Part shown: piece by piece, positions 45,243-62,432 of the stretch
Layout: each line of letters opens with the position of its first letter
How positions within the stretch are numbered: position 1 is the first letter of the stretch
Origin: an uncultured Trueperaceae bacterium
GTDB taxonomy: Bacteria; Deinococcota; Deinococci; Deinococcales; Trueperaceae
Assembly: GCA_963799485.1 (NCBI GenBank)
Contig: CAWCXJ010000006.1
Coordinates: 672,001 to 736,000, forward strand
Reading direction: 5' to 3'
DNA length: 64,000 bases
The notes under the pieces: model-generated
Told to the model about the DNA's origin: nothing
The model's input: only the letters and a program-made list of their open reading frames with translations
Database searches by the model: none
Translations under genes and position numbers: made by a program

Positions 45243-45296
45243 CACACCAATTCCACACATCTTGCACCCAACAAGTACACGCGCCTCCTGCAAACT
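45243..45296 (+). promoter_or_regulatory. Direct-repeat box plus -10 upstream of the DedA/VTT gene
   Basis: CACACCAATTCCACACA-N31-CAAACT. Confidence 0.65.
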
Positions 45297-45354
45297 TACA
45301 ACCAGACAGCGGTTACCCAAATCCGAACCGCCCACCGAAAAAGAAGAGGAGATC

Positions 45355-46179
45355 GTGGAAAACACAGCGCGCGTCAGGACGTCTAGAAGCGGAGCTTGGC
45401 TCGAGCGAAGCGAGACAGCGTCGCTCGAAACAAAAAGAACCCGCTCGCACAATTTAGATGGACACAAGCTGCTGCGCTACGCCGCGCTATTCGTCTGGGC
45501 GGCGCTCATGGTTGTGTTCTGGTTAGGGGTGCGCAGCGCGGACGTCGGCGCGCTCGAGTATCTGCTCGGCGTCATCGACACGGTGTCGCGCAACGCCTGG
45601 GCACCCGCCGCGTTACTGACCCTCTACCTGCTCCGCCCGCTGTTCCTGGTGCCCATCACGCTGCTCAATCTCGCCTCGGGCTTTCTGCTTGGTTCTTGGT
45701 GGGGCGTGGCGTTCGGGCTGACGGGCGTGCTGCTCTCCTCTACAAGCGGCTACGGGATCGGTCGCTTTTTCGGTTCGGCAGAGCTAGGGGAGACGTTATC
45801 GGCGCGGTGGTCCCTCGTGCGGATGTTGCGGAACCGGGGCTTCGAGGCGGTGCTCGCGGGCGGTCTCATGTACCTGCACGCGGACGCCGTCAACCTGCCG
45901 TCGGGCGTCATGCGAATTCGCTTCCCTGTCTTCTTAGCCGGCATCGCCCTCGGCAACGCGCTCACGCTCACGACGGCGGTGCTGGCTGGGGCGTCGGTAG
46001 AGGGCGGGCTGGCGGACGCGGCCGTCACAGTGGATCCCACCTATCTGGCAGTCGCGGCGGCGCTCTTCCTTGTCAGCCTCATGCTGGCTTATTTGGTACG
46101 AAAGCGCGTGCGTCTGGGAGGTGAGGGCAAGAATGACAAAGGCAACGAGAGGGTGAGGGCGTCCGCGCGTCTCACCTAG
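45355..46179 (+). CDS. TVP38/TMEM64 (DedA/VTT) family membrane protein
   Basis: GAGGAG RBS and GTG start; LYLLRPLFLVP..LASGFLLG..YGIGRFFG; hydrophobic throughout. Confidence 0.8.
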   Translation: MENTARVRTSRSGAWLERSETASLETKRTRSHNLDGHKLLRYAALFVWAALMVVFWLGVRSADVGALEYLLGVIDTVSRNAWAPAALLTLYLLRPLFLVPITLLNLASGFLLGSWWGVAFGLTGVLLSSTSGYGIGRFFGSAELGETLSARWSLVRMLRNRGFEAVLAGGLMYLHADAVNLPSGVMRIRFPVFLAGIALGNALTLTTAVLAGASVEGGLADAAVTVDPTYLAVAAALFLVSLMLAYLVRKRVRLGGEGKNDKGNERVRASARLT

Positions 46180-46193
46180 CATCAGCGCTTGTC

Positions 46194-46247
46194 TACACAA
46201 AATCCACACAAGAGGAGCATAGAACCCACCGTCTCCCTTTCTAAACT
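46194..46247 (+). promoter_or_regulatory. Direct-repeat box plus -10 upstream of the YceI gene
   Basis: TACACAAAATCCACACA-N31-TAAACT. Confidence 0.65.
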
Positions 46248-46292
46248 GATCACAGGTTTGAACAAACCGACATAACTCAGAGGAGGAATACT

Positions 46293-47000
46293 GTGAAATC
46301 CATTCAGATAGGACAACAAAGAAACTGGCGGAGGTGGCTCATAGGCGGTGCCGGGCTCGCTGTACTCGTCGCCCTCTCGCTCGTGGCGTGGTCGCTCTTC
46401 AAGCCGACTGAGGCAGCAAGCGGACCCGTTCAAGCGGCGGCGCTGGAGACCTCAGCAGCCGACGCCACGGTTTACACCTTCGCTGCCGGCGACGCCGAAG
46501 CGAGCTTCCTCATCGACGAGGTGCTGCGCGGCGAGGACGTCACGGTCGTCGGCACGACCGACCAGGTCGCTGGAGAGCTGTCTTTTAACTTCGCCGACAC
46601 GAGCACGGCGCAGCTCGGCACGGTGCGCGTGAACGTCCGCGACCTCGCCACCGACAGCGAGTTCCGCGACCGCGCCATCAAGAACCAGGTTCTCTTGACT
46701 GACGATTACGAATACGTGAGCTTCACGCCGACCGAGATCACGGGCTTGCCCGAGAGCGTGAGCCCGGGCGACACCTTCGAGGCGCAGATCACAGGCGACC
46801 TAACGATCACCGACGCGACCTTGCCCGTCACCTTCGACGCTGCCATCACCGTCGTGTCAGAGGGCGAGTTGACTGGCACGGCAACGACGAACTCTGCTTA
46901 CGAGGATTTCGGCTTAACTATCCCCTTCTCACAGTCGGTGGACGCGGTTTCGGACACGGTGACGCTCGAGCTGGACTTCACGGCGCAGGCACAGGGTTGA
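46293..47000 (+). CDS. Membrane-anchored YceI-family protein
   Basis: EASFLIDEVL..VVGTT..LATDSEFRDRAI..GDLTI..FGL. Confidence 0.85.
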   Translation: MKSIQIGQQRNWRRWLIGGAGLAVLVALSLVAWSLFKPTEAASGPVQAAALETSAADATVYTFAAGDAEASFLIDEVLRGEDVTVVGTTDQVAGELSFNFADTSTAQLGTVRVNVRDLATDSEFRDRAIKNQVLLTDDYEYVSFTPTEITGLPESVSPGDTFEAQITGDLTITDATLPVTFDAAITVVSEGELTGTATTNSAYEDFGLTIPFSQSVDAVSDTVTLELDFTAQAQG

Positions 47001-47105
47001 GTAAGACTTCAATGGAGAGTGTCTTCCGCGAGAAGGTACCGCTTCACGTCGCTGCATCGGCGGTCGTCCAAACGAGCAGCGTTTTACACTAAGGGCGAGG
47101 TTCTT

Positions 47106-47435
47106 GTGCACACCATACTCATCGTTGAGGACGAACTGGACATCGCCGAAACGGTCGAACTCTACCTCCGCAAAGAGGGATACAGGACCGAGCGAACGGG
47201 TTACGGCAGGCGTGCCCTCGAGCTGTGGCGGGCCGCGAAGCCCGACCTCATCCTCCTCGACATCGGGCTGCCCGAGGTGGACGGGCTCGAGGTCTTGCGC
47301 CGGGTCCGCGCAGAGTCGAGCGTACCCGTCATCATGTTCACCGCCAGGGCTGTAGAGATCGACGAACTCCTATGGTTGGGTAGGCGCGGACGACCACGTC
47401 ACCAAGCTGTTCTCCCCACGCACGCTCCTCGCTAC
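47106..47435 (+). pseudogene. Truncated, frameshifted OmpR-family response regulator
   Basis: ILIVEDE..DLILLDIGLPEVDGLEVL..MFTAR, frameshift, then GADDHVTK; no DNA-binding domain. Confidence 0.8.
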
Positions 47436-47701
47436 TAGGGACAGTTCGCTTCAGCTTTGGCGCACACGGTAATCACATAGGCGAAGCGCATCCCGCCGAG
47501 GTACTCCCTAACGCTTTTAGCGCGGTGCCCTGCCATATCGAAGCCCAGCTCGTCCATCACCCGCAGGGTATAGGGGTTAATCACGCTAGGGGCCAAGCCC
47601 GCGCTGTAGGCCGTGAAGCGCTCGCCGCCATAGTTACGCAAGAACGCTTCGGCCATCTGGCTCCGCGCCGAGTTGCCGGTGCAGAGAAACAGCACATTCA
47701 T
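47435..47701 (-). pseudogene. arsC: Second arsenate reductase (LMW-PTP type), 3' truncated
   Basis: [26 protein letters not shown] then stop; lacks the distal HW.F.DP segment. Confidence 0.75.
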
Positions 47702-48174
47702 CTCGAAAAACCTTTCTCGGGCAGTCTGCCCGCTTCGATCAGCCGGGATTCCGTAGGGGTTTCGCCTTTAGCTATTGCCTCGACTAGCGCCCGGCTCATG
47801 CCGCCCAGTGCGTCCCGCACCTCGCGCCACTTCTCTAGGCTTTGCCTGCCAGGGTCGGGAAACGACACGTGCAGCCGCGTGGTTTTCGCCGGATAAAGAG
47901 GACAGGCTTCATTGGCGCTGTCGCACACTGTCACCACCACATCAAACGCCCACGGGTCGGGCAGCTCGTCCAGCGTTTTGGACGTGTGGCCGGAGAGGTC
48001 GATACCCACTTCCTGCATCACCGTGACGGCCTCCGGTTTGACCTGCGTCTTTTCCGTCCCGGCTGACTGCACCTCGATAGACGCGGCAAGGTCGTTAGCG
48101 TAGTGGCGCACCCAGCCTTCGGCCATCTGGCTCCGCGCCGAGTTATGGGTGCAAAGCAGTAAAACCCGTGTCAT
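47698..48174 (-). CDS. arsC: Thioredoxin-dependent arsenate reductase (LMW-PTP fold)
   Basis: [30 protein letters not shown]. Confidence 0.9.
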
Positions 48175-49316
48175 GCGCGTTCCCCCTTGACGGTGTGGCT
48201 TATTTCCGTGGCGCAACCCGCATCCGCCGCTTGCAGCACCGTTGCCGAGGTTGGTTCAGGCTCCCCGAAATAGCGCCGCCGCAGCCAGAAGGCGACCGAA
48301 ACGAGCCCGATCATCGCCGGAACCTCGACCAGCGGCCCGATCACGGCGGCGAACGCCACGCCGGAGCCGACGCCGAACACCGCCACGGCGACCGCTAGGG
48401 CCAGCTCGAAATTGTTCCCGGCAGCGGTAAAAGACAAGGTAGCGGTTTGCGAGTAGTCAGCCCCGACGAGCTTACCCATCCCGAAGGAGACGAGGAACAT
48501 CACCCCGAAGTAGATCAGTAGCGGCGCGGCGATCAGCAGCACGTCAAGCGGCTGGGCGAGAATTGCGACCCCTTGCAGGCTGAACATCACTACGATGGTA
48601 AAAAGCAGCGCCAGCAGCGTCACCGGGCTGATACGCGGCAAGAAAACCGTGTCGTACCAGCTTTGCCCCTTACGCGGAATCAGCACCACCCGGCACAGCA
48701 CCCCCACCACGAAGGGGATACCGAGGTAAATCAGCACGGCTCGAGCCACCTCCCCAATGCTGATACCGATGACGTTCCCCTCAAGCCCGAACAGGGGCGG
48801 CATGACCGAGAGGAAAAACCAAGCATAGACGCTGAAAAAAAGTACCTGAAATACGCTGTTAAAGGCCACCAGCCCCGCCGCATAGTCCCGATCACCTTCG
48901 GCTAGTTCATTCCATACCAGCACCATTGCAATACAGCGGGCCAGCCCGATCAGAATCAAGCCCACCATGTATTCGGGATGGTTATGCAGGAAGATAATAG
49001 CCAGAAAGAACATCAAAAACGGGCCGATCAGCCAGTTTTGCAGCAGCGACAACCCTAGCACCCGGACGTTGCGGAACACCTGCGGCAGCTTGCCGTAACG
49101 CACCTTGGCGAGCGGCGGAATCATCATCAGCACCAGCCCGATAGCGATAGGGATATTGGTTGCGCCGACGCTGAGAGTGTCCAAAGCGCGACCCACATCC
49201 GGCACTGCCGCGCCGAGGGCGACGCCCGCCGCCATCGCTAGGAAAATCCATAGCGTTAGATAGCGGTCGAGAAATGACAGCCGTTTGCGCGGTGCCGGTA
49301 GGGGCGCGGTGGTCAT
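48171..49316 (-). CDS. acr3: ACR3-family arsenite efflux transporter
   Basis: [40 protein letters not shown]. Confidence 0.95.
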
Positions 49317-49627
49317 GCGGCAACTTCATCCGTCTTCACGGTTTCATAGCGGCCCAACTGCTCACGTACCGCCGCAAAAGCAGTAGGTTCGAGATCGTAA
49401 TACACCCATTTCCCGCGTTTATCGCCGCGCACAAAGCCCGCTCGCACGAGCAGCTTCATGTGATGACTCACAGCAGGCTGCGAGAGGCCGAGGAAGGTTT
49501 CCAAGTCACAGCCACAGACACCCTCATCACGGCTGCAACAGCTCTGAATCGGCTCTAACAGAAAATTTAGAATGTTCAGGCGGTGCGGGTCGGCAAGCGC
49601 CTTGAGTTTGAGAGCGAGATCATCCAT
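49313..49627 (-). CDS. arsR: ArsR/SmtB-family repressor
   Basis: [39 protein letters not shown]. Confidence 0.92.
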
Positions 49628-49637
49628 ACAAGTATTC

Positions 49638-49663
49638 TATACATAAACAGATTCAAATGTGTA
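49638..49663. promoter_or_regulatory. Putative ArsR operator between arsR and the DUF6428 gene
   Basis: Imperfect inverted repeat TATACAT..N12..ATGTGTA overlapping the arsR -10 (TAGAAT). Confidence 0.5.
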
Positions 49664-49714
49664 ATGCTATTGTCAGCGTAAGGCTTGACCTAAACCTTTA
49701 CTGAAGGAGCTATC

Positions 49715-50209
49715 ATGTCGCACCCCTCATTCACCGCCCAGTTTGAAGCCGCGCCCGCCAAATCTTTACGGTTTACCGTGGACGGCCAGCAGCTTGTGCC
49801 GAACGATTTTCACGTGACCGAAATCAAAAAAGTTTCGATTGAATCGCTCGATTGTGGCGGCGGCGCGAGCGCGTGGGAAGAGCTGGTGATTCAGCTCTGG
49901 TCGCCGCGTGGCGACGATACCCCCGAGCCGATGACGGTCGGCAAGTTTGCCAGTATCTTGGCGAAAGCCGACGCGCTGCCCCTGCTCGACGGCGAGCATG
50001 TGCGCTTTGAATATGCGCCCGTGGGCCAGCCAGCGGTGCAGTACGCGCTAAGCCGCATCAACGCCGAGGGCGACGCGCTAGAAGTGGAACTGATTGCGCC
50101 CTATGTGGCCTGCAAGCCCATCGAACGCGGCCAGATGAGCGAGCTGTCAGTTATCGGAGAAGCGGCCTGTTGTGCGCCCAGCACTAGCCAGGCGAAAGCC
50201 TGCTATTGA
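49715..50209 (+). CDS. DUF6428-like protein with Cys-rich tail
   Basis: FHVTEIKK..LDCGG..WEELVIQLW, ACKP, C-terminal ACCAP..ACY. Confidence 0.75.
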   Translation: MSHPSFTAQFEAAPAKSLRFTVDGQQLVPNDFHVTEIKKVSIESLDCGGGASAWEELVIQLWSPRGDDTPEPMTVGKFASILAKADALPLLDGEHVRFEYAPVGQPAVQYALSRINAEGDALEVELIAPYVACKPIERGQMSELSVIGEAACCAPSTSQAKACY

Positions 50210-50237
50210 GCTGAATTCCTACCGTTTATTACATCAG

Positions 50238-50897
50238 CTAAGCAGGACAGGCACAGGCATCAGCCGGACAACGGCCTGCCGGACACAAGGCCGGGTGCAG
50301 CTCCTGCCACGCTTCGGTCATTACTGTAAAGGCCGAGTGCAGGAACACCGCCACGATCACCAAACTAATCAGTAAATCCGGCCAGATCGAGCTGGTGAGC
50401 GCCGTCGCACCCGCCGCGAGAATCACGCCGGTGTTCGCTACAATGTCGTTGCGCGAGCAGAGCCACGTCGAACGCATATTGATGTCGTCGCTCCGGTGCC
50501 GGGTAAGTAAATAGAGACACACGCCGTTAGCGATGAGGGCCACCATAGCGGTTAGCGCCATCAGGCCAGCGATAGGCGTTTCCGGCACATAGAGTTTATA
50601 GATTGCCTGCCCCAGCACCCCAAGGCCGAACACCGCCATGATGCCGCCTTTGAGCAAAGCCGACCGCGCCCGCCAGTGCAGCGCCCGTCCGATAACAAAG
50701 AGGCTAAAACCGTAAACGAGCGTGTCGCCCAGCATGTCGAGCGAATCCGCTAATAGCGCCACCGAGCCGACCAGTAGCCCCATGACCAGCTCAACTACGA
50801 ACATGCCGCCATTGATCCCCAAGACCGTCCATAGCACCTTGGACTGGCTTTTTTGCAGCGCTTCGACTTCGCAACCTTTATCTTGTCAACAGGACAT
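50238..50897 (-). pseudogene. CDF-type cation transporter with in-frame TGA at codon 4
   Basis: TATAAT-N6-ATG at 50897 reads MSC*QDKGCEVEALQ..; ALLADSLDMLGD, DINMRSTWLCSRND, WPDL. Confidence 0.7.
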
Positions 50898-51010
50898 GCG
50901 ATAATTATAGGCGCTTCTCAGGAAATTGCAGTTATTGAGCTGAAACACCCATAGCTAACCTGAGTTCGAAAAGCTCTTAATTCTTATTGTGAAGAATTGT
51001 TTCAAACCGT

Positions 51011-52192
51011 CTACGCCACTATTTGTAGCGGTATTCTCACCTGAAACAATGCGCCACCGCCCGCACGGTTCATGACCTGCACACTGCCACCGTGGAGCTT
51101 CACCAACGCGTCAACAATCGCCAGACCTAAACCCGAAGAGCCCTTCGTATCTTTGCCCTGAATAAACCGTTCAAAGATATGTGGCAGGTCGGCTTCAGGG
51201 ATGCCTGGGCCGGTATCACTTACCTCTAAACACGCACCGGAATCACAGGTTTGGACGCTGAGTTGCACCACGCCACCGGCTGGCGTAACGCGTAACGCAT
51301 TGTCGAGCAGGTTCCCGAGTACCTGGATCAAGCGGGTTTGGTCGATGTTGGCTACGATATCGGCTCCGGTACACACGAGCGTTACGCCTCGTTGCTGCCC
51401 CCGCGCCTGAAAACTCTCAGCGACCTCCTCGACTAACTCATTCAGATGGGTCGGTTGCCGCTTTAGGGTTAGCTGTCCAGCGTCGGCGAGCGAAAGCGTC
51501 CGGAGGTCTTCGACTAACTGTGAAAGCACCCCCGTTTGTGTGAGTAGATGTCCAATTTGCGCCTTACTCAGGGGCATAAGTCCGTCTTGGAGCGCCTCGA
51601 GCCGCATCTGCAACGCGGTCAGCGGCGTGCGGAGTTCGTGGGCGATATCGGCGACCATCGCCTTGCGTTCACGTTCGAAAGTCTCCAGCGCCTCAGACAT
51701 GTCGTTAAAGGTGACGGCTAAACGGTCCGTCTCGAGACGTGAGCGCCGCTGCTTCTCGCTCAACCTCACGCGGGCGCTGAAGTCTCCGGCAGCGACGCCC
51801 CCGGCAGCCTTGGAAACCGCCGCGATAGGTTGTGCGATGGAGCGCGACACGAGCAGGGCCAATAGAACCGTCATCCCGACGGCTAAAAGCAGCCCGATGA
51901 GCAGCATCTGCTCCTGTAACCGTCTACGTTCTTCAAAGGAGAGGGCTTGCTGGCGAAGCATGTCGGCTTGCGTACCACCGTCCCCTAAGCCGGAAAGTGA
52001 CGTGGCCCTTGCGCGGCGAGGGCGTAGACCGAAGAGGTCGAACCGTGGGGGCGGCACCTGCGCGCGCACCTCGCTCGGCAGCGACCAGTAGGTGCGGTAG
52101 TCGGCGACCTGAAGCACCGCTGCGAGGATCGCCAAAGACAATGCGGTCGTCATAATCATGGCGACGGCTAGACGGGGGGCAAGGCGGTTCAA
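51011..52192 (-). CDS. HAMP sensor histidine kinase (BaeS-like)
   Basis: Two TM segments, HAMP, DIAHELRTPL, NLLDNAL, DTGPGI, GLGLAI. Confidence 0.93.
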   Translation of the reverse strand: MNRLAPRLAVAMIMTTALSLAILAAVLQVADYRTYWSLPSEVRAQVPPPRFDLFGLRPRRARATSLSGLGDGGTQADMLRQQALSFEERRRLQEQMLLIGLLLAVGMTVLLALLVSRSIAQPIAAVSKAAGGVAAGDFSARVRLSEKQRRSRLETDRLAVTFNDMSEALETFERERKAMVADIAHELRTPLTALQMRLEALQDGLMPLSKAQIGHLLTQTGVLSQLVEDLRTLSLADAGQLTLKRQPTHLNELVEEVAESFQARGQQRGVTLVCTGADIVANIDQTRLIQVLGNLLDNALRVTPAGGVVQLSVQTCDSGACLEVSDTGPGIPEADLPHIFERFIQGKDTKGSSGLGLAIVDALVKLHGGSVQVMNRAGGGALFQVRIPLQIVA

Positions 52193-52869
52193 GAGGAGCG
52201 AGCTGTCAGCCGGTAGCCGACGCCGCGCACCGTTTCTAAAATGTCGGCGGCACCCTGTTCGGCAAGCTTGGCGCGGATGTTTTTGAGGTGCCGGTCGATA
52301 GCGCGTTCTAAAGCGTCACTTTCAGGCATTGCGGCGTCGAAGAGTTCGGTGCGGCTCATCGCCTTGCCGGGGGCGTGAGCGAGCGTCTCGAGCAACTTGA
52401 ATTCGGTCGGCGTGAGCTGTAAAGCGGTGCCGCCGATACGTGCTTCGACCTGGTACGAATCGACCTCCAAAGGACCGACCCGGACGACCTGCGGTGCGTC
52501 GCCCTCCGCCTTGCTCCGCCGCAACACCGCCCCGACGTGCGCCACGACCTTACGGGGGCTGCACGGTTTGGTGAGGTATGAATCCGCGCCGAGCCCTAAT
52601 CCTAGTAGCTCGTCAAGTTCTTCGCTGCGCGCCGTGAGCATCACCACCGGGGTACGGCCCGCTCCGCGAACACGGCGCAAGACCTCCAACCCGTCGAGCC
52701 TGGGCAAGCCGATGTCGAGTACCACGAGGTCGGGTTGCGCGGCGCGAAACAGACGCAAGGCTTCTTCACCGTCGGCGGCGCGTTCGGTCTGGTGCCCGTC
52801 GTTACGCAGGTAAAGCTCGAGCATTTCGGCAATTTCACGGTCGTCCTCGACGACCAAAATCAGGGCCAT
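52189..52869 (-). CDS. OmpR-family response regulator (BaeR-like)
   Basis: GGAGG RBS; VEDD, LDIGLP, MLTAR, LTPTEFKLL, ETVRGVGY. Confidence 0.93.
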   Translation of the reverse strand: MALILVVEDDREIAEMLELYLRNDGHQTERAADGEEALRLFRAAQPDLVVLDIGLPRLDGLEVLRRVRGAGRTPVVMLTARSEELDELLGLGLGADSYLTKPCSPRKVVAHVGAVLRRSKAEGDAPQVVRVGPLEVDSYQVEARIGGTALQLTPTEFKLLETLAHAPGKAMSRTELFDAAMPESDALERAIDRHLKNIRAKLAEQGAADILETVRGVGYRLTARSS

Positions 52870-52947: not shown

Positions 52948-54177
52948 TTACGGTGTGTCCGAGGTGTCGGTGCTCGTAGGTGAGGTGGTGTCCGGGACTG
53001 TGGTGTCGAGCGTCGTATCTGAGGTTGTCGTGTTCAGGCTCGAGGTCTCCCCCGCACCGTCAGTAAGGGTGTTCTCTAGTGTGTCATCTTGGGCGCTGCT
53101 AGAGTCGTCCGAAGTCGCGCCGTTTGAGACTGCACTTACGTCGGAACTACCCGTGCTGCTTGTTGTACTGCCGCCAGAGACGGTCTGCTCGAGCGCTAGC
53201 GCCGCCAAGCGAAAGTCGTAGAGCGCGCTGTACATCGCCACTTCCGTTTGCATATGGCTCAGCTGCGCCTCCTGAAAGCTGATAGGAGCGAGGCTGCCCG
53301 CGTCAAGCCGCGCTTTTTGTGCGGCAAGTTCTTCTCGTGAGGCGCTGAAGTCGGCCTTGGCACTCTCGAAACTGCGCTCGGCGCTCGAGAGCGCATTGTA
53401 CGCGCCGCTAACGTCTAGCTCGAGGCTCCGGCGGGCGGTGTCGAGGTCGCTTTGAGCACGCGTCAGCGCGTCCTGCGCGGCGTCGATATCGGTCTGAGCA
53501 CTAAAGGCGTTATTGACCGCCGCGAGTTGCGCCTCGGCGACCGTCACGGTGGTCGAGGCTGCTTGTACGCCGCTGTTGGTCGCTTTAGCCTGACCTAAAC
53601 TTGCTGCTAACGTTGGCACGGCGGGCGGTGTAAGGCTGATTTGGACGAGCTGCGCCGCATCTTGTCGAATAAGGCTAGTGAGCTCGCCCTCAGCAAGGGC
53701 TTTGGTTTGCTCGGCGTTTTGCCTATTGCGCTGCGCTGCGGCGAGGGTGTTTTGCGCCTGAAGCAGCTCGAGGTCGGTTGCGGCCCCCGCGTCTAGGCGA
53801 ATCTGCGTCGCCTGCACGGTGGCCTGTTGGATGGCGAGGTCTTGTTCGGCGACCTCGAGGGCGCGCTCGGCGCTCAGCGAGTCGAAGTAGGCGCTTGTGA
53901 CTTCCGTGCGTGAGGTGAAACGGGCGGACTCGAGCGCGGCCCGGGCGTTTTCAAGGGTTTGCTCGGCCTGGAGCGTCGGAACCCGGAGGGCTAAAGGGTC
54001 GGCCTGAAGCCGGGTCAGCTCGCGCTGCGCTGCCGCAACGTCGGCCTCTGCGCCCAGCACGTCCGGATCGGCCGCAGGGGCTGCGCGCAAAACTTCAGTG
54101 AGAGTCAGCGCGTCACCCGTCGTCTGTGCAAAGGTAACACTCACGCTTAAGAGTAGGGAAAGAAAAAGCCGCCGCAT
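52948..54177 (-). CDS. TolC-family outer-membrane efflux protein with Ser/Thr/Asp-rich tail
   Basis: Signal peptide; two OEP-like coiled-coil halves (EVTSAYF..RLDAGAAT..DLELLQAQ; RLDAGSL). Confidence 0.8.
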   Translation of the reverse strand: MRRLFLSLLLSVSVTFAQTTGDALTLTEVLRAAPAADPDVLGAEADVAAAQRELTRLQADPLALRVPTLQAEQTLENARAALESARFTSRTEVTSAYFDSLSAERALEVAEQDLAIQQATVQATQIRLDAGAATDLELLQAQNTLAAAQRNRQNAEQTKALAEGELTSLIRQDAAQLVQISLTPPAVPTLAASLGQAKATNSGVQAASTTVTVAEAQLAAVNNAFSAQTDIDAAQDALTRAQSDLDTARRSLELDVSGAYNALSSAERSFESAKADFSASREELAAQKARLDAGSLAPISFQEAQLSHMQTEVAMYSALYDFRLAALALEQTVSGGSTTSSTGSSDVSAVSNGATSDDSSSAQDDTLENTLTDGAGETSSLNTTTSDTTLDTTVPDTTSPTSTDTSDTP

Positions 54178-54178: not shown

Positions 54179-55546
54179 TTAGAGAACCTCCAGAGGATCG
54201 AGGGCGAGGGTTTGGAGCAGGTTCAGCTGGGCCAAGAGCACACTGTCTTGCAGGCGGGCGAACTGCACTTGTGCGTCCAGCAAGCTCGCCTCGGCGCTCT
54301 GAACTTCGTAAGGCGCGACGAGGCCGAGACCTAAGCGGGTGCGGGTCGTCGCGAGCGAACTTTGGCGCTGCTCGACAAGTGCCTGGGCCGCCTCGAGGCT
54401 GTTTTGCGCGGTCATGAGCTGAGTCTGGGCAGCTTGAAGCTCGAGCCCGGCCTGCGCCTGAACTTGCGCCAACTGCTGCTCTGCGTTCTGGACACCGGTT
54501 TCAGCCGCTGCCAGCGCTGAGCCGCTGCCAGTGCCGAACGGAATACTCACGCTGAGCTGGGCGCTCAAACCTTCACGAGTCGCCGTTCCCGCGACCCCTG
54601 TTGCCGTGCCGTCCGGGTCGTAAGCGACGCTCAAGGACGGTTGATAGGTTTCCGTGGTCAACCCCGCTGCCAACGTCACATCTGACGAACTGTAACTCGC
54701 GCTCACGCCGCCGCTCGGCAATACTTCACGCAAGGCGGCGTCGGCGCTGAGCTGCGCAGCCTGCACCGCTAAGCGGGCGCTTAAAACGTCGCTGCGCTCG
54801 GCAAGCCGCGCAGCTGCACCGCCCAGTTCGGGCAGCGTCACGGTTGGCGGTTCCCCGGATACGGCAGCGACGTTTGCGCCCAGCGTTTGGGAAAGCGCCC
54901 CTAAAGCCTGGTCTCTTTCCAGAGCCACTTCAGCGAGGTCGTTTTGCGCTTCGCTCAGCCTGATCTGCGCGTCCAGCACATCGGCGCTGCTGGAGGCCCC
55001 GGCCTCCAGACGGGTTTGGGTGGCGTCGAGTGCGCTCTGGGCGACGTTTACGGCGGCTTCTAGGGCTTGTTCTTCCTGAGCGTAGCGGAGGGTCTCTAGG
55101 TACTGCGTGGCAACCGTGACCACGGTGTCTCTGCGGGTGGCCCCCAGCACAGCCTCCGCAGTTTCTACCGCCCACTTTGCCTGTGTTACGCCGTCAGCCA
55201 CGTTGCCGTAAGGGACGACGTTGAAGCTGCCTGTGAGCGTGAGCGGCCCGAAGTCGCCGGTAGCGGCTTCAGCTGCTGAAACATATGTCCGGGTGTAGTC
55301 GGTGCTGAGGCTGCCCGAGACGAGCCCAGACGCAGCTTTTAACTGCTGCTGTGCAAGTTCGAGTTGCCCCTCAGCGAGCTCGACTGCCGGACTTGCGGAC
55401 GCTGAGGAGACCGCCTGGTCGAACGATAGTGTCGTTTCTGCTTCCTGTGCCGCGGAGAGCGGAAGGGCGCTCAGACCTACCAAGCAGGTCCCTAGAAACC
55501 AACGCTTCAGGTTGGTTGAGGTTTGATTATCTAACTGGCGTGTCAT
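54179..55546 (-). CDS. TolC-family outer-membrane efflux protein
   Basis: Signal peptide; OEP repeats (VATQYLETL..RLEAGASS.ADVLDAQ; RLGLGLV..EVQSAE). Confidence 0.82.
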   Translation of the reverse strand: MTRQLDNQTSTNLKRWFLGTCLVGLSALPLSAAQEAETTLSFDQAVSSASASPAVELAEGQLELAQQQLKAASGLVSGSLSTDYTRTYVSAAEAATGDFGPLTLTGSFNVVPYGNVADGVTQAKWAVETAEAVLGATRRDTVVTVATQYLETLRYAQEEQALEAAVNVAQSALDATQTRLEAGASSSADVLDAQIRLSEAQNDLAEVALERDQALGALSQTLGANVAAVSGEPPTVTLPELGGAAARLAERSDVLSARLAVQAAQLSADAALREVLPSGGVSASYSSSDVTLAAGLTTETYQPSLSVAYDPDGTATGVAGTATREGLSAQLSVSIPFGTGSGSALAAAETGVQNAEQQLAQVQAQAGLELQAAQTQLMTAQNSLEAAQALVEQRQSSLATTRTRLGLGLVAPYEVQSAEASLLDAQVQFARLQDSVLLAQLNLLQTLALDPLEVL

Positions 55547-55552
55547 AGGAAC

Positions 55553-55606
55553 AGTGTCGCAGGCATAGAATAGGGTTTTGTATGCACTCGATGCGGATTT
55601 GATATG
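55553..55606 (-). promoter_or_regulatory. Direct-repeat box plus -10 of an internal leaderless promoter for the TolC genes
   Basis: Minus strand CATATCAAATCCGCATC-N31-GACACT-N6-ATG(55546). Confidence 0.65.
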
Positions 55607-55630
55607 CACGTTCCGGCAGATAAGAGAACC

Positions 55631-56962
55631 CTACTCATAGCGCAGGCTTTCAACTGGATCTAACCGGGCAGCGCGCTGCGCCGGATAAAACCCGAAGAAA
55701 ACGCCGACCAAAAGTGAGAACCCGAAGGCCAACACCATCGGCGGCAGCGTGTACGAAGGCGTGAGGTCTAAAAGCGGCGCGGCGACGTAGGCGCTGCCGA
55801 CCCCGACTGCTAGGCCGATCAGCCCGCCCCCAGCGGAGAGCAGAGTAGCCTCGAGCAAAAACTGCGTCAGGATGTCCCTGGGTCTTGCCCCGAGCGCCTT
55901 ACGGACGCCGATTTCGCGGGTGCGCTCCGTCACCGAGACCAGCACGATGTTCATGATGCCGATACCGCCGACGAACAGACTGATTGAAGCAATCGCGCCT
56001 AAAAAGAGTGAGAGCGTCTGACTGACCTCGTTGAGTGATTCCAGACTGTCGGCCTGGTTTTGAATCTCGAAGTCGTAATCGTCTACGGGCTCACCCAAAA
56101 GGCCGTGCTGATTGACCAGCAGCGTCGTCAGATCGTTTTCCAGACCCGTTAACACGTCCGGGCTCGAGCCCTCCACATAGACCGAACCTATGGTCGGGTC
56201 GCCGATGGCGGACTGCCGATACACGCGCTGCAAAAAGGTACTCAGCGGAACGAACACGTTCGTATCGGTGTTGCCGAAACCGCTGCCCGACGTGGGCAAG
56301 ACGCCGACCACCGTAAACGAGTTGCCGTTAATGCTGAGCGTTTCACCCAGCGCACTGCCGCCTGGAAAGAGCGTCGTCGCCGCTTCGGAACCGAGAACGG
56401 CGACCAGTGCGTTGTTTCCCAGTTCACTTTCGCTGAACCAGCGCCCCGTCGAGGTCGCGCTATTTCGCACCGTTTCGTAACTCGGCCACGTTCCCGTCAC
56501 GCTGGCGCTCAAGTTCTCTTCGCCCGCTTTGACCTGAACCGTCGTGTCAATGGTGGGCGCAACGTCCCTGATTCGCGGGTCGTCGAGTGCCACAATCGCG
56601 TCGGCGTCGCCTAACGTAATGCTGTTCGAACTGCCGCCACGCACCAGGCCGGGTGAACCGAACGAGCGGCTGCTCGAGACCGTCAGCAAGTTCGTTCCGA
56701 GGCTCGAGATGCTCGCCGTTACGCTGCTCGTGACGCCCGCGCCGATAGCAGTCAGCGCCACAACCGCCGCCACCCCGATAATCACGCCGAGCGCGGTCAG
56801 GGCGCTGCGGGTGACGTTTGCCCGAACCGAACGCCACGCCATCGTCAGGGTTTCAAGGAATCCGAGTCCGCCGGAATGAGGCGGTGTGAACGGGTTTTTA
56901 GTTACGGCAGGCGTGACCGCCGGGCTTGGGGTGGCGTTTGTCGCTGTGACCTTTTCCATCAC
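55631..56962 (-). CDS. MacB-like ABC permease
   Basis: RSALTALGVIIGVAAVV, VGGIGIMNI.LVSVTERTREIGVRKALGA, FGFYPA..P.ESLRYE. Confidence 0.92.
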   Translation of the reverse strand: MMEKVTATNATPSPAVTPAVTKNPFTPPHSGGLGFLETLTMAWRSVRANVTRSALTALGVIIGVAAVVALTAIGAGVTSSVTASISSLGTNLLTVSSSRSFGSPGLVRGGSSNSITLGDADAIVALDDPRIRDVAPTIDTTVQVKAGEENLSASVTGTWPSYETVRNSATSTGRWFSESELGNNALVAVLGSEAATTLFPGGSALGETLSINGNSFTVVGVLPTSGSGFGNTDTNVFVPLSTFLQRVYRQSAIGDPTIGSVYVEGSSPDVLTGLENDLTTLLVNQHGLLGEPVDDYDFEIQNQADSLESLNEVSQTLSLFLGAIASISLFVGGIGIMNIVLVSVTERTREIGVRKALGARPRDILTQFLLEATLLSAGGGLIGLAVGVGSAYVAAPLLDLTPSYTLPPMVLAFGFSLLVGVFFGFYPAQRAARLDPVESLRYE

Positions 56963-57732
56963 AGCTGCCCCGCAGCCTCGGCTCGAGCCGTGCCCGTGTC
57001 CCCATGAGCGACCGGCTGGGCGGTGTCGCTCTCGAGCAGCCCGTCACGGAGCCGCACCGTACGCTTTGTCCACGCGGCGATGTCGGGTTCGTGCGTGACG
57101 ACCACCACGGTTGTACCCTCGTCGTTTAGTTCACGAAAAAGGGTCATGATGTCTTCGCCGGTTTGGGTGTCCAAGTTGCCGGTCGGTTCGTCGGCTAACA
57201 GCAGCGCCGGGTTGAGCGAAAGCGCCCTCGCCACGGCGACGCGCTGCTTTTGCCCCCCGGAAATCTGCGAGGGGAGGTTTTTTGCCTTATCGGCGAGTCC
57301 CACTTTGGCGAGCAGCTCGAGCGCCCGCTCCCGCCTCACCTTGGGTTTGACTCCGGCATATAAGAGCGGCGTTTCGACGTTCTCGAGCAGGCTGTACCGC
57401 GGCAGTAGGTGAAACGCCTGAAACACAAAGCCGATAAACCGGTTTCGAACCTCTGCCCGTTCGCCCTCGCTCAGGTCCGTGACGTCCGCCCCCGAGAGCA
57501 AGTAGCGCCCGCCTGTCGGCTCGTCCAGGATGCCCAGGATATTCATCAGGGTCGATTTGCCAGACCCAGACGGCCCCATTAGCGCCACGAACTCGCCCGC
57601 ATAGACATCGAACGACACGCCTTTAAGTGCCCAGAACGCGGTATCGCCCAGGTCGTAACGTCGGGTGATGGCCTCGAGCCGTAAAACAGCGTCCCTACGG
57701 TCTGCCTCATAGCAGGTTTCAGGCCGGTTCAT
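56959..57732 (-). CDS. MacB/LolD-like ABC ATP-binding protein
   Basis: GPSGSGKST, ISGGQKQR, LADEPTGNLD, VTHE. Confidence 0.94.
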   Translation of the reverse strand: MNRPETCYEADRRDAVLRLEAITRRYDLGDTAFWALKGVSFDVYAGEFVALMGPSGSGKSTLMNILGILDEPTGGRYLLSGADVTDLSEGERAEVRNRFIGFVFQAFHLLPRYSLLENVETPLLYAGVKPKVRRERALELLAKVGLADKAKNLPSQISGGQKQRVAVARALSLNPALLLADEPTGNLDTQTGEDIMTLFRELNDEGTTVVVVTHEPDIAAWTKRTVRLRDGLLESDTAQPVAHGDTGTARAEAAGQL

Positions 57733-59324
57733 CGTGGCCCCCCGCCACCGCCGAAACCAGCGCCCGGTGGCCCGCCGAAACCGCCCCCACGGTCACCGGC
57801 GTCACCACTCGCTTCAGGTTCTGAAGCAGTTCCTGAGCCCGGTACGCGCACCGTCACCGCTTCACCACCGGACAGCAAGGTGCTCGGGTCGGGTCTTGCC
57901 GGAGCCGTTTCGGCGTCCGGATTATCCCCTGTACCGGCAGCGGCCACCGTTCTGTTCGGGGTTCTAATTTGTGTGTCGGTAGGTGCATCTGCGGGTATAC
58001 CTTCTGGAGCCTCGGCAACCTGCACGACGGTGTTAAGCCCGTCTGTCCCGACAACCTCGACCGGCAGCGGAACGGCGCGACCAGCCTGCTCGAGTTCGAC
58101 GACGCTTCTATCACCGAACGTTTGCACAGCGGCAGTCGGCACGCTGAGGGTGTTCTCGAGGGTCTCGACTGCAATGTTAGCCTCGGCAGTCATCCCCGGA
58201 CGGAGCCCCAGGTCGGAGTTGACGATTTGCACCGTCACCCCGAAGATGGGGATGTTGTCCTCTACAGTGGCGCTCGGCGACACCGCTGTCACCTCGCCCT
58301 CAAATGTTTGGCCGCTTACCGCGTCGGCGGTGACCGTCGCCGCTTGACCGACCCGGACGCCGCTGATTTGGGTTTCGTCGACCTGCGCGGCTAACTCAAC
58401 CGTTTCGTAGTTGCTCAGCGTCAAGAGGGTCTGCCCTGCGCTCAGCGTGGTTCCGGCCTGAATTTGGATGGCGCTCGAGGTATCCGAAGTACTTTCGTCG
58501 CTGATGGCGGTGACAACCCCGGCGATAGGCGCGGTGATGGTCGCGTCCGCCAGATTACGCTGCGCCTGCTCTAAGGTGAGCTGCGCCTGTGCGGCGGCGA
58601 GTTCGGCATTTCTGAGGTCTTGCGTGTCGGCGTCACTTTGAAGCGTCTGCGTCGTGCTGAGGGTAGCTAGGGTGTCCTGTGCATTATCCAGGGTGGCGAC
58701 TGCGGTGTCGTAAGCATTTTGGGCCGTTTGCACCTCGGCTGCACTGCCGCTACCAACCTCGCGCAACTGCTCGGCGAGTGAAAGCTCTTGTTGAGCTGTT
58801 TGGACGCTGCGCTGCGCCTCACTTACGGCGCGCTGGGCCTCGGCAACCGCGCTAGCACGTCCCCTGCTGCTGTCGGTCTGCCCTAAACGCAGGCTCTCGA
58901 GTTCGGCTTGCGCCCCTTCAAGTCCCAGCTGCGCTTCAGTCACGGCTTCTTGCAAGGTTTCAGGCTCGAGCTGAGCGAGCGTTTGTCCTTTCGCTACTTC
59001 ATCGCCCACGCTGGCCAAACTCTGAATCGTCCCGGCAACGGGTGCACTGACGCTGACGCTTTGCGCGGCGGAGAGCGTCCCCGGTCCCGAAATCGTCAGG
59101 TCGTAGGGGGCAGGTGTCACTGAAACAGTTGTGTAGGTGGTTTGCGCCGCGCCCGCACGCTGCTGCGCCTGCCACCACCAGCCGCCCGTAGCCACCACAC
59201 CCAATAACGTGATAAGTGCCAGCCAGAGCCGTACACGCCGCCTTGCCAGACGTTTGCCCCATTGTCTGCCCGGTCGTTTTTCTTTGTCTTGCACCGTCTG
59301 CCGGTCTGTGCCTATCACTGCCAT
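57729..59324 (-). CDS. MacA-like periplasmic adaptor (membrane fusion protein)
   Basis: N-terminal TM, lipoyl halves (VSAPVAGTI..GDEVAKGQ; ITAPIAGVV), long helical hairpin, LRPGMTA. Confidence 0.9.
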   Translation of the reverse strand: MAVIGTDRQTVQDKEKRPGRQWGKRLARRRVRLWLALITLLGVVATGGWWWQAQQRAGAAQTTYTTVSVTPAPYDLTISGPGTLSAAQSVSVSAPVAGTIQSLASVGDEVAKGQTLAQLEPETLQEAVTEAQLGLEGAQAELESLRLGQTDSSRGRASAVAEAQRAVSEAQRSVQTAQQELSLAEQLREVGSGSAAEVQTAQNAYDTAVATLDNAQDTLATLSTTQTLQSDADTQDLRNAELAAAQAQLTLEQAQRNLADATITAPIAGVVTAISDESTSDTSSAIQIQAGTTLSAGQTLLTLSNYETVELAAQVDETQISGVRVGQAATVTADAVSGQTFEGEVTAVSPSATVEDNIPIFGVTVQIVNSDLGLRPGMTAEANIAVETLENTLSVPTAAVQTFGDRSVVELEQAGRAVPLPVEVVGTDGLNTVVQVAEAPEGIPADAPTDTQIRTPNRTVAAAGTGDNPDAETAPARPDPSTLLSGGEAVTVRVPGSGTASEPEASGDAGDRGGGFGGPPGAGFGGGGGPR

Positions 59325-59401
59325 AATCCTGTCACCTTCGCCTCCGTGTGTCGTAAAAAATAAACTTGAGGGCTCGCCCTAAGCTGCGCGAAACCTTCCT
59401 T

Positions 59402-59551
59402 ATCGTGTGCCGCGTCTATTGGGTTTGCGTACAGAACATGTGCGGATTTGATGTGGTTGTAAATCCACCTGGCTTTTACGCCAGGAACAGAACCAAGCAC
59501 ACGAAATCCGTACACAACCCAAAACGTTTGGACATGTTGAGGCGTCAAACT
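59402..59551. promoter_or_regulatory. Back-to-back pair of direct-repeat boxes with -10 elements
   Basis: Minus: CACATCAAATCCGCACA(59455-59439)-N31-CACGAT. Plus: CACACGAAATCCGTACA(59498-59514)-N31-CAAACT. Confidence 0.68.
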
Positions 59552-59613
59552 TCGAAACAGATGGTTGGAAGCACCCAACGAACCGACCATCACGCAGCCT
59601 GAGGAGGCAAAAA

Positions 59614-60045
59614 ATGAAACGTACCGTTATCGCAACCGCACTCGCCGCAACCCTTTTAGTCACTGGATTCGCCAGTGCCGAAGACGCCCTTTTCCCCAGC
59701 AACAACGCCAGCGCCGAAGTAACGTTTTACACCGCTGACCCTGAGGCTAACGGCGTCTTGCTAAACACCGCGATGGTCAACAACAGCCCGTTCGCAGCCA
59801 CCATAGACGGCGCTGATGCGGCGACCTACATCACCATCAGCTATGACGGCGAAAGCTACACCTTCCCGCTCGCAGAGAGCGGTGACACTAAGAATGAGGT
59901 AATGCTCGAGGTTACCGACAACACCGCCAACAGCGAAACAGCTCAGTACGTCTCGGATACCGGCACGGTCTCGCTCAGCGACGTGATAGACGGATTGGCG
60001 ACCGACCCGGAGCTACTCGAGGCGTTGCAAGCTACCGTAAGCTGA
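59614..60045 (+). CDS. Secreted acidic hypothetical protein
   Basis: GAGGAGG RBS; signal peptide MKRTVIATALAATLLVTGFASA. Confidence 0.75.
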   Translation: MKRTVIATALAATLLVTGFASAEDALFPSNNASAEVTFYTADPEANGVLLNTAMVNNSPFAATIDGADAATYITISYDGESYTFPLAESGDTKNEVMLEVTDNTANSETAQYVSDTGTVSLSDVIDGLATDPELLEALQATVS

Positions 60046-60067
60046 CGTTGCGCCGAGCACATCATCC

Positions 60068-60100
60068 AAACGGCTCCGGGTTTCGTACTCGGAGCTGTTT
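60068..60100. terminator. Hairpin between convergent genes
   Basis: AAACGGCTCCGGGT-ttcgt-ACTCGGAGCTGTTT. Confidence 0.65.
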
Positions 60101-60235
60101 GAACATGGTTGTTAGCCCCGAGCCCAGCCTGCAAACACCCCAAAGTGGACGTCAGCTGAGTAAACAGATACCTCGCTGCCGTCCCTCGGCACATCTTCGT
60201 CAAGCCGCAAGCTGTGGTTTCTTATTAGAGACCCT

Positions 60236-60895
60236 TTAACTCAACCCGTGCTCCACCGCGTAAACCGCCGCTTGTGTACGGTCTCTAAAGCCCAGCCGCG
60301 TCAGGATATTCGACACATGGTTTTTGACCGTACCCTCGCTCACGCCAAACTGTCTAGCGATTTCTTTATTCGATGCACCTTTAGCGAGAAGGCGCAGCAC
60401 CTCGAGCTCTCTAGGCGTCAGGTCGTGTTCTAGCTCTTTTTTCTGGTCGGCTTTGTCTTGCCGGTCTCTGAGCGAGCCGACGAGCTTCCCGGCTACGTCC
60501 GGCGCGAGCTGGAAAACGCCCGCATGGGCGAGTTTGACGGCGCGCGCTAGGTCGGTAGGAGGGATGTCTTTCATGAGGTAGCCGCACGCCCCGGCCAGAA
60601 GAGACTGCACGATGTACTCTTCGTCGTCAAAGGTGGTGAGCATGATGACCTGGCACGAGGGGAGCCGCTGACGCACCCTCGCGGTCGCCTCGACGCCGTT
60701 CATCTCGGGCATACGCACGTCCATCAAGATAACGTCGGGCTTGTGCTCCTGGGCCTTTTCCACAGCCTCTTGACCGTTCGCCGCCATGCCGATAACCTCA
60801 ATGCCGTCCTCGAGTTCCAAAAGCGAGGCGATGCCCTCGCGAATGAGGTACTGGTCGTCGGCGAGCAGGGTGCGGATCGGTTTTGTTCCCGTCAT
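60236..60895 (-). CDS. NarL/LuxR-family response regulator
   Basis: LADDQ, LMDVRMP, LTTFD, LTPRELEVL..SNKEIA..TVKNHVSNIL. Confidence 0.93.
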   Translation of the reverse strand: MTGTKPIRTLLADDQYLIREGIASLLELEDGIEVIGMAANGQEAVEKAQEHKPDVILMDVRMPEMNGVEATARVRQRLPSCQVIMLTTFDDEEYIVQSLLAGACGYLMKDIPPTDLARAVKLAHAGVFQLAPDVAGKLVGSLRDRQDKADQKKELEHDLTPRELEVLRLLAKGASNKEIARQFGVSEGTVKNHVSNILTRLGFRDRTQAAVYAVEHGLS

Positions 60896-62238
60896 CGCTC
60901 CTGTCCTCGTCCCGGTCGCGTTTTTGGGATGGTGGCCGTGAGTCTCGTTCCGTGGGGTTGGCTCTGAAGCGTCAGCTTGCCGCCGACCAGCCCCAAGCGT
61001 TCTTGTAGACCCACGAGACCGAAGCCGCTTCGCCTCTCCTGCCAGCCGCTCGCGTCGAAGCCGGAGCCGTCGTCGCACAGGTTCAGCGTCAGGCGTTCGT
61101 CGCCGAAATCCAGGCTTAGGGTGACCTGACTCGCCCCGGCGTGTTTGTGGATGTTGGTCAAGCCTTCTTGAATCACACGGTAGAGGGTCATGAGGACGAG
61201 GTCGCTGTAACCCCTGCTGTCGCCCATTCTCTGAAGTTTAAGCTCGAGGTCCCCGTGCCGCATCCGTGCCAGCAGGCTCTCGAGCGCATCGTCAAACGAA
61301 AAGGGGGTACTTTTCCGCAGGCTCCCTACCGATTCGCGGACATCTTTTAGTGCATCTTGAACCGTCCTCTGCGCCTGTTTTACGGCGTCTTGGGTACGCT
61401 TCGGGTCACGTTCTTTGTAGGCGTTGGCTTTTTCTAGTTGAATATTGATCGCCGCCAAGTGATGTCCCAAGCTGTCGTGGACATCTCTGGCGACGCGGTT
61501 GCGTTCTTCGGTAGCGGCAAGCTCGGCAATCTGGTCGGTCGAAGCCCGCAGGTCGTGGTGCGAGGCTTCTAGAGAGGTGTGGAGCGTCTCGAGTTCCGCC
61601 TGATCCGCCGCAGCCCGTGCCACTGCGCGAGCCAGCAAAAAGGTGAAAAACAAGATGACGAGCACGCCGAAGCCGCGGTCAACGAGCTGCCCGAGCGGGA
61701 GCGAGGTTGACGGCGGCTGACCGGGTAAGGGTCGCCCCGCTGCCGGGGGTGGTTGAAGGGTTGGCAGTGTGGGGTTAATCCCGACTCCTTGGCTCAGCAG
61801 CAGGAGGAGGCTGGCGGCGGCTACGGCGTAGCTCACCCACTTGCTCACGGCTAAATACAAGTACAAAATCAGGACGAGAAAAACGACCTGCGAATAGAGC
61901 GGGTCGCCGAACGCCAGAATAGCGGCGAACAGAAGCAGTCTGAAGGCGAGTTGCGGCAAGCCGACACGTTCTGACGCGCGAAAACTTGCTGAGCCTAGCG
62001 CTGCAGACTCGAGCCCGATGAGGCCCAGGATGGCCGCTAGAAAAATCACGAAGCGCACCCCCTGCGGCGCGGAGACAAGCGAGTTCGGCCCGATGCCCCC
62101 AGTTAATACGTCAACAAGTCCGGCCAGCAGCACCAGGCCGTAAGTCGCCAACGCAATAAAACGGTAGCGCTTGTACAGGGGCGGTAAGACGTCGGTACGC
62201 CGTAATCGCAGCGTCCGCATTTTCAAGGAACGGGTCAT
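60892..62238 (-). CDS. HisKA_3 membrane sensor histidine kinase
   Basis: Multi-TM N terminus, ERNRVARDVHDSLGH, QEGLTNIHKHA, DDGSGF, GFGLVGLQER. Confidence 0.92.
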   Translation of the reverse strand: MTRSLKMRTLRLRRTDVLPPLYKRYRFIALATYGLVLLAGLVDVLTGGIGPNSLVSAPQGVRFVIFLAAILGLIGLESAALGSASFRASERVGLPQLAFRLLLFAAILAFGDPLYSQVVFLVLILYLYLAVSKWVSYAVAAASLLLLLSQGVGINPTLPTLQPPPAAGRPLPGQPPSTSLPLGQLVDRGFGVLVILFFTFLLARAVARAAADQAELETLHTSLEASHHDLRASTDQIAELAATEERNRVARDVHDSLGHHLAAINIQLEKANAYKERDPKRTQDAVKQAQRTVQDALKDVRESVGSLRKSTPFSFDDALESLLARMRHGDLELKLQRMGDSRGYSDLVLMTLYRVIQEGLTNIHKHAGASQVTLSLDFGDERLTLNLCDDGSGFDASGWQERRSGFGLVGLQERLGLVGGKLTLQSQPHGTRLTATIPKTRPGRGQER

Positions 62239-62378
62239 GCCCTTAGAGCGTAACAGACGTAAACCGAAATGACATCTATCCTTTGGCTAAAAAACTAGCC
62301 GAAGGTCATAGGGCCAGCGGCTAGCTAAAATCTCGTTCACCTCAGACGTCAGCTCGGTGATTCGCACCCCGGCCTTTC

Positions 62379-62432
62379 CAAACAAAACCTATACACGACC
62401 CATCCCCGTACCACACAGACCCCCAGCATACT
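62379..62432 (+). promoter_or_regulatory. Direct-repeat box plus -10 upstream of the 62491 gene
   Basis: CAAACAAAACCTATACA-N31-CATACT. Confidence 0.5.

Follow-up and report, generated by a model that had tools for sequence, protein, structure and literature searches.

A predicted autoregulated two-component regulon joining a BaeR-like regulator to a MacAB-type efflux pump and envelope proteins in an uncultured Trueperaceae bacterium

In a 64,000-nucleotide stretch of the genome of an uncultured Trueperaceae bacterium (contig C6, positions 672001-736000; this whole stretch is called the window below), the same 17-mer stands before six genes or operons, among them those for a MacAB-type efflux pump, two TolC-like outer-membrane factors and a two-component regulator with its kinase. 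The question raised by this locus is whether the six copies are promoter elements of one regulon and, if so, which protein would read them and with what effect. The genome (G000) comprises 3,655,195 bp in 15 contigs, and it was scanned on both strands. The favored answer, with a probability of about three in four, is a locally acting, positively autoregulated two-component system that would activate promoters with an unusual C at position -12, placed before the efflux pump and several envelope proteins.

The six 17-mers had been described in an earlier note on this DNA, together with their strands, their 31-nt spacers and the hexamers of the form NANNNT that follow, and all of these were recovered exactly. 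All six sites are intergenic, each is aimed at the downstream gene, and the hexamer lies 31 nt past the 17-mer in every case. The DedA/VTT promoter (45243..45296, forward strand) has the half-sites CACAC, CACAC, CACCC and TACAC at 45243-45286 and the -10 hexamer CAAACT at 45291-45296; here the continuation of half-sites in phase at 45265 (CACCC) and 45276 (TACAC), also claimed earlier, is present. The YceI promoter (46194..46247, forward) has half-sites at 46194-46237 and TAAACT at 46242-46247. On the reverse strand, the promoter of the operon tolC1-tolC2-regulator-kinase (55553..55606) carries its half-sites at 55606-55563 and GACACT at 55558-55553, and the promoter of macA (59402..59455) carries them at 59455-59412, with CACGAT at 59407-59402. 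Divergent from the latter is the hyp143 promoter (59498..59551, forward), with half-sites at 59498-59541 and CAAACT at 59546-59551. The weakest box belongs to the hyp146 promoter (62379..62432, forward), with half-sites at 62379-62422 and CATACT at 62427-62432. The hexamer sequences bear out the earlier statement that the first base is not T at five of the six sites. Between box and hexamer, the spacers are unrelated in sequence except at in-phase A positions.

Chance is excluded as the source of the six sites because of shuffles and a genome-wide scan. A degenerate 16-mer, with at most one mismatch allowed, matched exactly the six sites in the 64-kb window (0.30 expected), a number reached in none of 100 shuffles. 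Genome-wide the same pattern gave 28 matches, and five of the six without a mismatch fall inside the 17-kb stretch that holds the sites. A weight matrix at a score of at least 10 returned 377 matches in the genome, 368 of them outside the cluster region, and NANNNT stood at +31 in 14 of these 368 (3.8%; background 4.4%) compared with six of six cluster sites. The composite of motif, N31 and -10 element, for which the earlier note had proposed such a scan, is restricted to the cluster, the hexamer occurring elsewhere at the background rate. The motif is thus not equally frequent in shuffled sequence, and spacing and orientation are shared by six of six sites. A scan of positions 45000-63000 for the sigma-70 consensus yielded 4 matches against 3.4 expected and no -35/-10 pair at the six sites; Rfam gave no matches at gathering score in 44000-64000.

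The anatomy of the sites was derived from a profile of 20 aligned sites, the six of the window and 14 from relatives, which are other Trueperaceae except for G035, a member of another family of the order. This set was assembled by requiring N31 and NANNNT, a box at locus L053 with no hexamer at 31 nt being left out; as profile positions 0-16 and the hexamer's A and T were used for selection, their conservation is built in. At unselected positions, A is found at +25 in 14 of 20 sites and at +36 in 15, both in the register set by the A that is invariant at +3 and +14, and at +30 in 14. The hexamer has C as its first base in 14 of 20 sites, A as the fourth (-9) in 16 and C as the fifth (-8) in 16, and an A follows seven nt after the hexamer in 13. 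Naive binomial P values for the unselected positions run from 2e-4 to 2e-8, a strength that is overstated since the sites are kin and not independent. Taken together, the profile shows an array of four in-phase 11-bp half-sites with the core YAYAY, units 1 and 2 being strong and units 3 and 4 weaker; the -10 element, cAnaCT, stands four bases after the array. The earlier description of an 11-bp direct repeat of the OmpR/PhoB form is correct to the base in its period, but the half-sites number four, not two. If transcription starts at the conserved A, the array would span about -60 to -17.

That the hexamer is a real -10 element is supported by the habits of the genome as a whole. TANNNT peaks 5-7 nt before ATGs that open at least 150 codons, with 230 occurrences at 6 nt against 27-78 at other same-phase offsets, the commonest forms being TAAACT, TAGACT, TAAGCT and TATACT, often with G at -14. 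Leaderless promoters with a TAnRCT -10 element are the norm in this genome. CANNNT, on the other hand, has no peak before ATGs that open reading frames (ORFs) genome-wide, so C at -12 is particular to the putative regulon promoters. The first base of the hexamer is therefore non-T, as had been stated earlier, but a conserved C and not mere degeneracy. An in-frame ATG or GTG stands 6 nt after the hexamer at tolC1 of G000, at the regulator gene of G035 and at paralogous regulator genes (contig C9 of G000, and G001), which indicates leaderless mRNAs; at G013 and L054 an ATG stands 6 and 7 nt after it, respectively. The mRNA of tolC1, with its ATG at 55546, is probably leaderless. In two relatives, G004 and G021, an ATG likewise stands 6-7 nt past the -10 element of tolC1, but the ORF that it starts is short, 13 and 7 codons, respectively (L021:14379-14430; L023:10198-10225), and may be a leaderless leader peptide; the real tolC1 start, with its ribosome-binding site, lies further downstream.

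In related genomes, such sites are conserved next to orthologous regulators. The box was found, as the earlier note had proposed looking for it, upstream of Trueperaceae orthologs, namely before orthologous macA genes and before tolC-tolC-regulator-kinase operons. In G004, of the same genus (regulator 83% and kinase 64% identical), and in G021, of another genus (64.5% and 44%), the genes run macA-ATPase-macB-tolC1-tolC2-regulator-kinase in one direction, with box-N31-NANNNT before macA and again before tolC1. Further composite sites are found at L060 (regulator 71% identical) before tolC1 and before a secreted 291-aa protein, at L052 (68%) both in the macB-regulator interval and ahead of a secreted 247-aa protein, and in G035 (66%) before the regulator and before a TolC gene. 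At about 60% identity, one precedes YceI-regulator-kinase in G013 and another the regulator at L054. Composite sites are thus present at five of five loci in which the regulator is at least 64% identical, and at seven of the 14 non-paralogous loci scanned overall. A pattern search of five relatives returned 19 matches against 8 for a reversed control. Eight new loci from this search were inspected, a set that excludes L032, L036, L037, L039, L044, L046 and L047: three stand properly before a gene (L035, L038, L040), four lie in ORFs (L041, L042, L043, L050), and L048 has no clear downstream gene.

The same arrangement speaks for autoregulation. In the window, the box at 55606-55563 precedes tolC1-tolC2-regulator-kinase, genes whose boundaries overlap or leave short gaps, as in an autoregulated two-component operon, and in G035, L052 and L054 the box stands directly before the regulator. 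As box-N31-hexamer precedes orthologous tolC-tolC-regulator-kinase operons, the predicted autoregulation appears to be conserved. A second two-component system of the window, a NarL-type regulator with a HisKA_3 kinase (60236-62238, reverse strand), is argued against as the binder because no NarL-type regulator occurs in the G004 or G021 loci.

The candidate binder, a regulator of the OmpR/PhoB family, is encoded at 52189-52926 on the reverse strand, with a probable start at 52869, where a GGGAGG ribosome-binding site precedes an ATG. The protein is intact (Pfam Response_reg 92.8 bits, cut-off 30.2; Trans_reg_C 69.7 bits, cut-off 26.2). Its translation contains the motifs VVEDD, VVLDIGLP, MLTAR and LTKP, with the acidic pocket, phospho-acceptor Asp, Thr and Lys of an OmpR/PhoB receiver, and its C-terminal winged-helix Trans_reg_C domain aligns with the DNA-binding domains of AdeR, BaeR and PhoB. 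The best solved match of the whole regulator is BaeR (4b09, E 6.2e-48), and that of its DNA-binding domain is the DNA-binding domain of AdeR (5x5l, E 5.8e-16). The sensor histidine kinase (51011..52192, reverse strand) has two membrane segments with an outer loop of ~68 residues, followed by HAMP, HisKA (H-box IAHELRTPL) and HATPase_c domains; BaeS_SmeS, BaeS and AdeS are its best NCBIfam models, all below their cut-offs (BaeS 202.9 vs 603). The regulator likewise misses the NCBIfam equivalog cut-offs of BaeR (NF007982, 182.9 vs 380), AdeR (NF012227, 189.4 vs 340), CreB (203 vs 273) and CpxR (NF008199, 154 vs 341), and with PhoB TIGR02154 it reaches 185 bits against a cut-off of 296.2, a match at the family level only. 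Of the earlier proposal of a BaeR-like regulator in a BaeSR/Cpx-like system, the first part holds in that BaeR is the best full-length solved relative, but no BaeR or CpxR equivalog cut-off is reached; "BaeR-like" is best taken to express resemblance and not membership.

The predicted targets, placed on a gene map made from Pfam domain searches, center on a tripartite pump of the MacAB-TolC type. Adaptor, ATPase, permease with MacB core and FtsX, and outer-membrane factor are all found together on the reverse strand: the MacA-like adaptor macA (57729-59324; Pfam HlyD_D23 74.3 bits; TIGR01730 129 bits, above the cut-off of 94.9), the ABC ATPase (56959-57732; ABC_tran 119.2 bits), the MacB-type permease (55631-56962; MacB_PCD 148.9 bits, FtsX 79.7 bits), and the first and second TolC-like outer-membrane factors, tolC1 (54179..55546; OEP 134.9 bits) and tolC2 (52948..54177; OEP 75.4 bits). 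The equivalog cut-off of Escherichia coli MacB is missed (244.8 vs 966) because ATPase and permease are separate genes here. The macA and tolC1 promoters are conserved in G004 and G021, which makes macAB, the tolC pair and the genes for regulator and kinase the likely conserved targets. Exactly between the divergent macA and hyp143 boxes, at 59470-59487, two perfect inverted arms of 6 bp enclose a loop of 6 nt (CCTGGC-TTTTAC-GCCAGG); the equivalent interval of G004 (L087) shows no such repeat.

The remaining candidate members lie on the forward strand. The DedA/VTT-domain membrane protein (45355..46179; Pfam VTT_dom, E 2.9e-13) has a GTG start after an AGAGGAG ribosome-binding site, and the YceI-like protein (46293..47000; Pfam YceI, E 9.7e-20) follows it; both are box-linked in G000, and YceI is box-linked in G013 as well. 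The gene hyp143 (59614..60045) encodes a secreted 143-aa protein of unknown family with a signal peptide. It has 17 metagenome homologs at 53-79% identity and two homologs in G004 (58% and 42%), both of which follow box-N31-CAGACT or TAGACT, and a weak relationship (E 6e-5) links it to the repeats in larger secreted proteins encoded after boxes at L052 and L060, on contig C9 of G000, and in G001. A second small secreted family, of 111-131 aa, is found after boxes in G004, G003 and G001. Neither family is in Pfam; for hyp143, searches gave no NCBIfam family, no usable protein-atlas match and no solved fold (AlphaFold mean pLDDT 75.2; best Foldseek match to the PDB at E 0.13; best Z 3.3 in a wide VIA search). 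Beside the hyp143 ortholog of G004, a divergent DUF2218 gene (L087:974-1297, reverse strand) has a strong box (score 21.4) directed at it, with no NANNNT at 31 nt. The 146-aa product of hyp146 (62491..62931) is likewise of unknown family and lacks a signal peptide. Homologs at ~24-32% identity occur in only five of 80 other genomes of the family, and near them no box scoring at least 10 with a hexamer was found. The functional context that the earlier note offered for these two genes consequently fits hyp143, whose box is kept in two G004 homologs, but for hyp146 no close ortholog lends it support.

On the favored reading, the six sites would be activator-dependent sigma-A promoters of one local regulon. 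The phosphorylated product of 52189-52869 would bind the four tandem half-sites as tandem dimers and recruit RNA polymerase, the half-site array taking the place of a -35 element. The -10 element would be the normal TAnRCT of the organism with C for T at -12, which would make the promoters weak. In this way the regulator would activate the MacAB-type ABC efflux pump, the two TolC-like channels, the DedA membrane protein, YceI, the 143-aa secreted protein and the 146-aa protein, and through the regulator-kinase genes in the tolC operon it would reinforce its own synthesis.

Such a circuit would resemble several characterized systems. At promoters of the PhoB type, the regulator recruits the sigma factor from tandem 11-bp direct repeats that replace the -35 element just upstream of the -10; half-site sequence and regulon are different here, and the match to PhoB is at the family level. 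As in AdeRS-AdeABC of Acinetobacter baumannii, a regulator of the OmpR/PhoB family and its kinase are encoded beside a tripartite efflux pump, whose control by them is predicted here, and the AdeR DNA-binding domain shares an SDALER-x-D-x-H stretch with that of the regulator in the window. Unlike AdeABC, which is of the RND type, the pump here is a MacAB-type ABC transporter with two TolC-like genes, and the phylum is Deinococcota. The AdeR site is given as AAGTGTGGAG-N-AAGTGTGGAG, two direct copies of 10 bp separated by a single base and thus of 11-bp period; its reverse strand holds TCCACAC, which in the window forms the core of half-site 2 (PMC5766154). This single 21-bp intercistronic repeat differs from the four half-sites in fixed register with the -10 element. 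BaeSR of E. coli and Salmonella is similar in that BaeR is the best full-length solved relative of the regulator and the best models of the kinase are of the BaeS type; the activation of efflux genes and a periplasmic protein by BaeSR is a further likeness to the targets proposed here. The target genes themselves differ, and the BaeR and BaeS equivalogs are missed. The BaeR consensus, quoted as TCTNCANAA, resembles TCCRCACA (PMC3799227). The system would probably work like AdeRS, BaeSR and PhoB-type promoters while belonging, by these comparisons, to none of their equivalog families.

The surroundings bear on how the regulon may have come together. Transposase genes bracket the box-bearing stretch, one of the DUF772 type at 44085-44885 and one of the IS1595 type from 63496 to the window end (64000), both on the reverse strand; the bracketed stretch includes an arsenic-resistance block (ArsC, ACR3, ArsR, DUF6428) with a CDF transporter (47698-50837, mixed strands) and looks like an assembled resistance island. 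Between YceI and this block, at 47019..47438 on the forward strand, is what remains of a second regulator of the same subfamily, a truncated receiver that lacks a DNA-binding domain. Its identity to the island regulator is 63% over residues 23-111 of the latter, with no match beyond, against ~70% to the regulators of L052 and G013, and it ends where the arsenic block begins. Given these identities and the box before YceI-regulator-kinase in G013, YceI was apparently once followed by its own regulator pair, now truncated, and the remnant would be the relic of an operon like that of G013.

This history matters for the rival that survives best, namely that the boxes are real and mainly bound by a paralog from another locus (contig C9 or C6:607-608 kb, for instance), or are subject to cross-talk, the DedA and YceI boxes being orphans of the truncated regulator. 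G000 has ten kinase matches, with paired paralogous regulators 58-62% identical, and the receiver remnant is closer to the regulators linked to YceI in G013 and L052 (~70%) than to the island regulator (62%). Additionally, the hyp146 site opens with a CAAAC half-site, the type found at paralogs: in paralogous two-component systems of contig C9 and of G001, boxes of the CAAAC type stand in the N31 register in five of five cases. These boxes, at C9:173462 and 175473 in G000 (L026) and at L029:8648, 10653 and 11220 in G001, precede the systems' own leaderless regulator gene and secreted Gly/Phe-rich repeat proteins. However, the different box of the C9 paralog (CAAAY type) goes with a different recognition helix, which in both paralogous systems reads HITN in place of the HLKN or HVKN of the YACAC group, a co-variation of box type and helix that is suggestive, though seen in few lineages. 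The YACAC-type box, moreover, travels with the regulator in five loci of at least 64% identity, before tolC or the regulator gene, and the remnant at 47019-47438 has no DNA-binding domain with which to bind. Control by a paralog is accordingly judged unlikely.

A second rival takes the arrays as operators at which the bound protein, be it the island regulator or another, represses by covering the -35 region. Units 3 and 4 extend over -38 to -17, and protein bound there could obstruct RNA polymerase, yet the six sites have no -35 consensus to block. The conserved non-consensus C at -12, where the genome has T, is typical of promoters that need help, and the distance from box to -10 does not vary by a single base pair among the 20 compiled sites, a set selected for N31 and NANNNT. 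Repression appears improbable on these grounds. It is very unlikely indeed that the likeness stems from copied promoter cassettes or from chance, with no shared regulator: transposase genes flank the island, which may have been put together from mobile pieces, but the spacers are unrelated apart from in-phase A positions, the geometry recurs in other genera with diverged spacers, and shuffles and genome-wide scan exclude chance.

Activation by the island regulator thus remains the favored reading, and several points weigh against it. At the score chosen, seven of the 14 homologous loci lack a composite site; these have regulators of at most 63% identity or are fragmentary. The comparison sites are evolutionary kin, which inflates the P values of the profile. 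The box could be read as well by paralogs that belong to this regulator subfamily. The promoters of DedA and YceI adjoin the remnant of a second regulator and may have evolved under that lost protein, and the membership of hyp146 would hang on one site, the weakest, at a gene with no close ortholog. Furthermore, the AdeR study describes the site of that regulator as intercistronic and not as a classic promoter site (PMC5766154).

Boxes elsewhere in the genome differ from the composite. Other strong ones, including C6:570113, C8:291324, C6:523966 and C6:572013, have no hexamer at 31 nt and were set aside; C6:523966 and C6:572013 sit inside long ORFs. A weak box followed by TAAACT at C9:220214 was taken as chance because the hexamer frequency among weak matches equals the background; the gene after it, judged from its N-terminus, is presumably ClpB-like. 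The orphan box at C8:291324 (reverse strand, locus L091; score 22.7) precedes a 421-aa lipoprotein with a beta-propeller repeat (Pfam SBBP). A consensus TATACT stands 24 nt from the start of this box, which would then occupy the position of units 3-4 in the regulon promoters. At C6:570113 and L029:6208, a conserved stretch of ~30 bp with a box-like start (CAAAYAAAAKCT...) running into ATCCGGTTTTAT precedes homologous genes in G000 and G001. This stretch lacks a hexamer at 31 nt and could represent an operator of another kind.

A wider proposal is speculative and, in our judgment, doubtful: the 48-bp register and the C at -12 could mark out activator-obligate promoters of Trueperaceae as a class of their own, in which a regulator tetramer stands in for the -35 element and C is selected and not just tolerated, and the hyp143 family, with one to three repeats, and the 111-131-aa family could be Deinococcota counterparts of Spy and CpxP, which are periplasmic stress proteins. 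No new principle of regulation is involved in the circuit itself, which is of a well-known kind in a little-studied phylum. Judging from titles and the openings of abstracts, no paper describing this regulon was found. What the locus offers is a testable two-component regulon in Deinococcota, where almost no such circuits have been mapped. It provides a binding-site model with base-pair geometry and predicted transcription starts, some of them leaderless, and would connect a regulator resembling AdeR and BaeR directly with a MacAB-type pump. It would also place DedA, YceI and a secreted protein family of unknown function in a common functional context, that of envelope or efflux stress.

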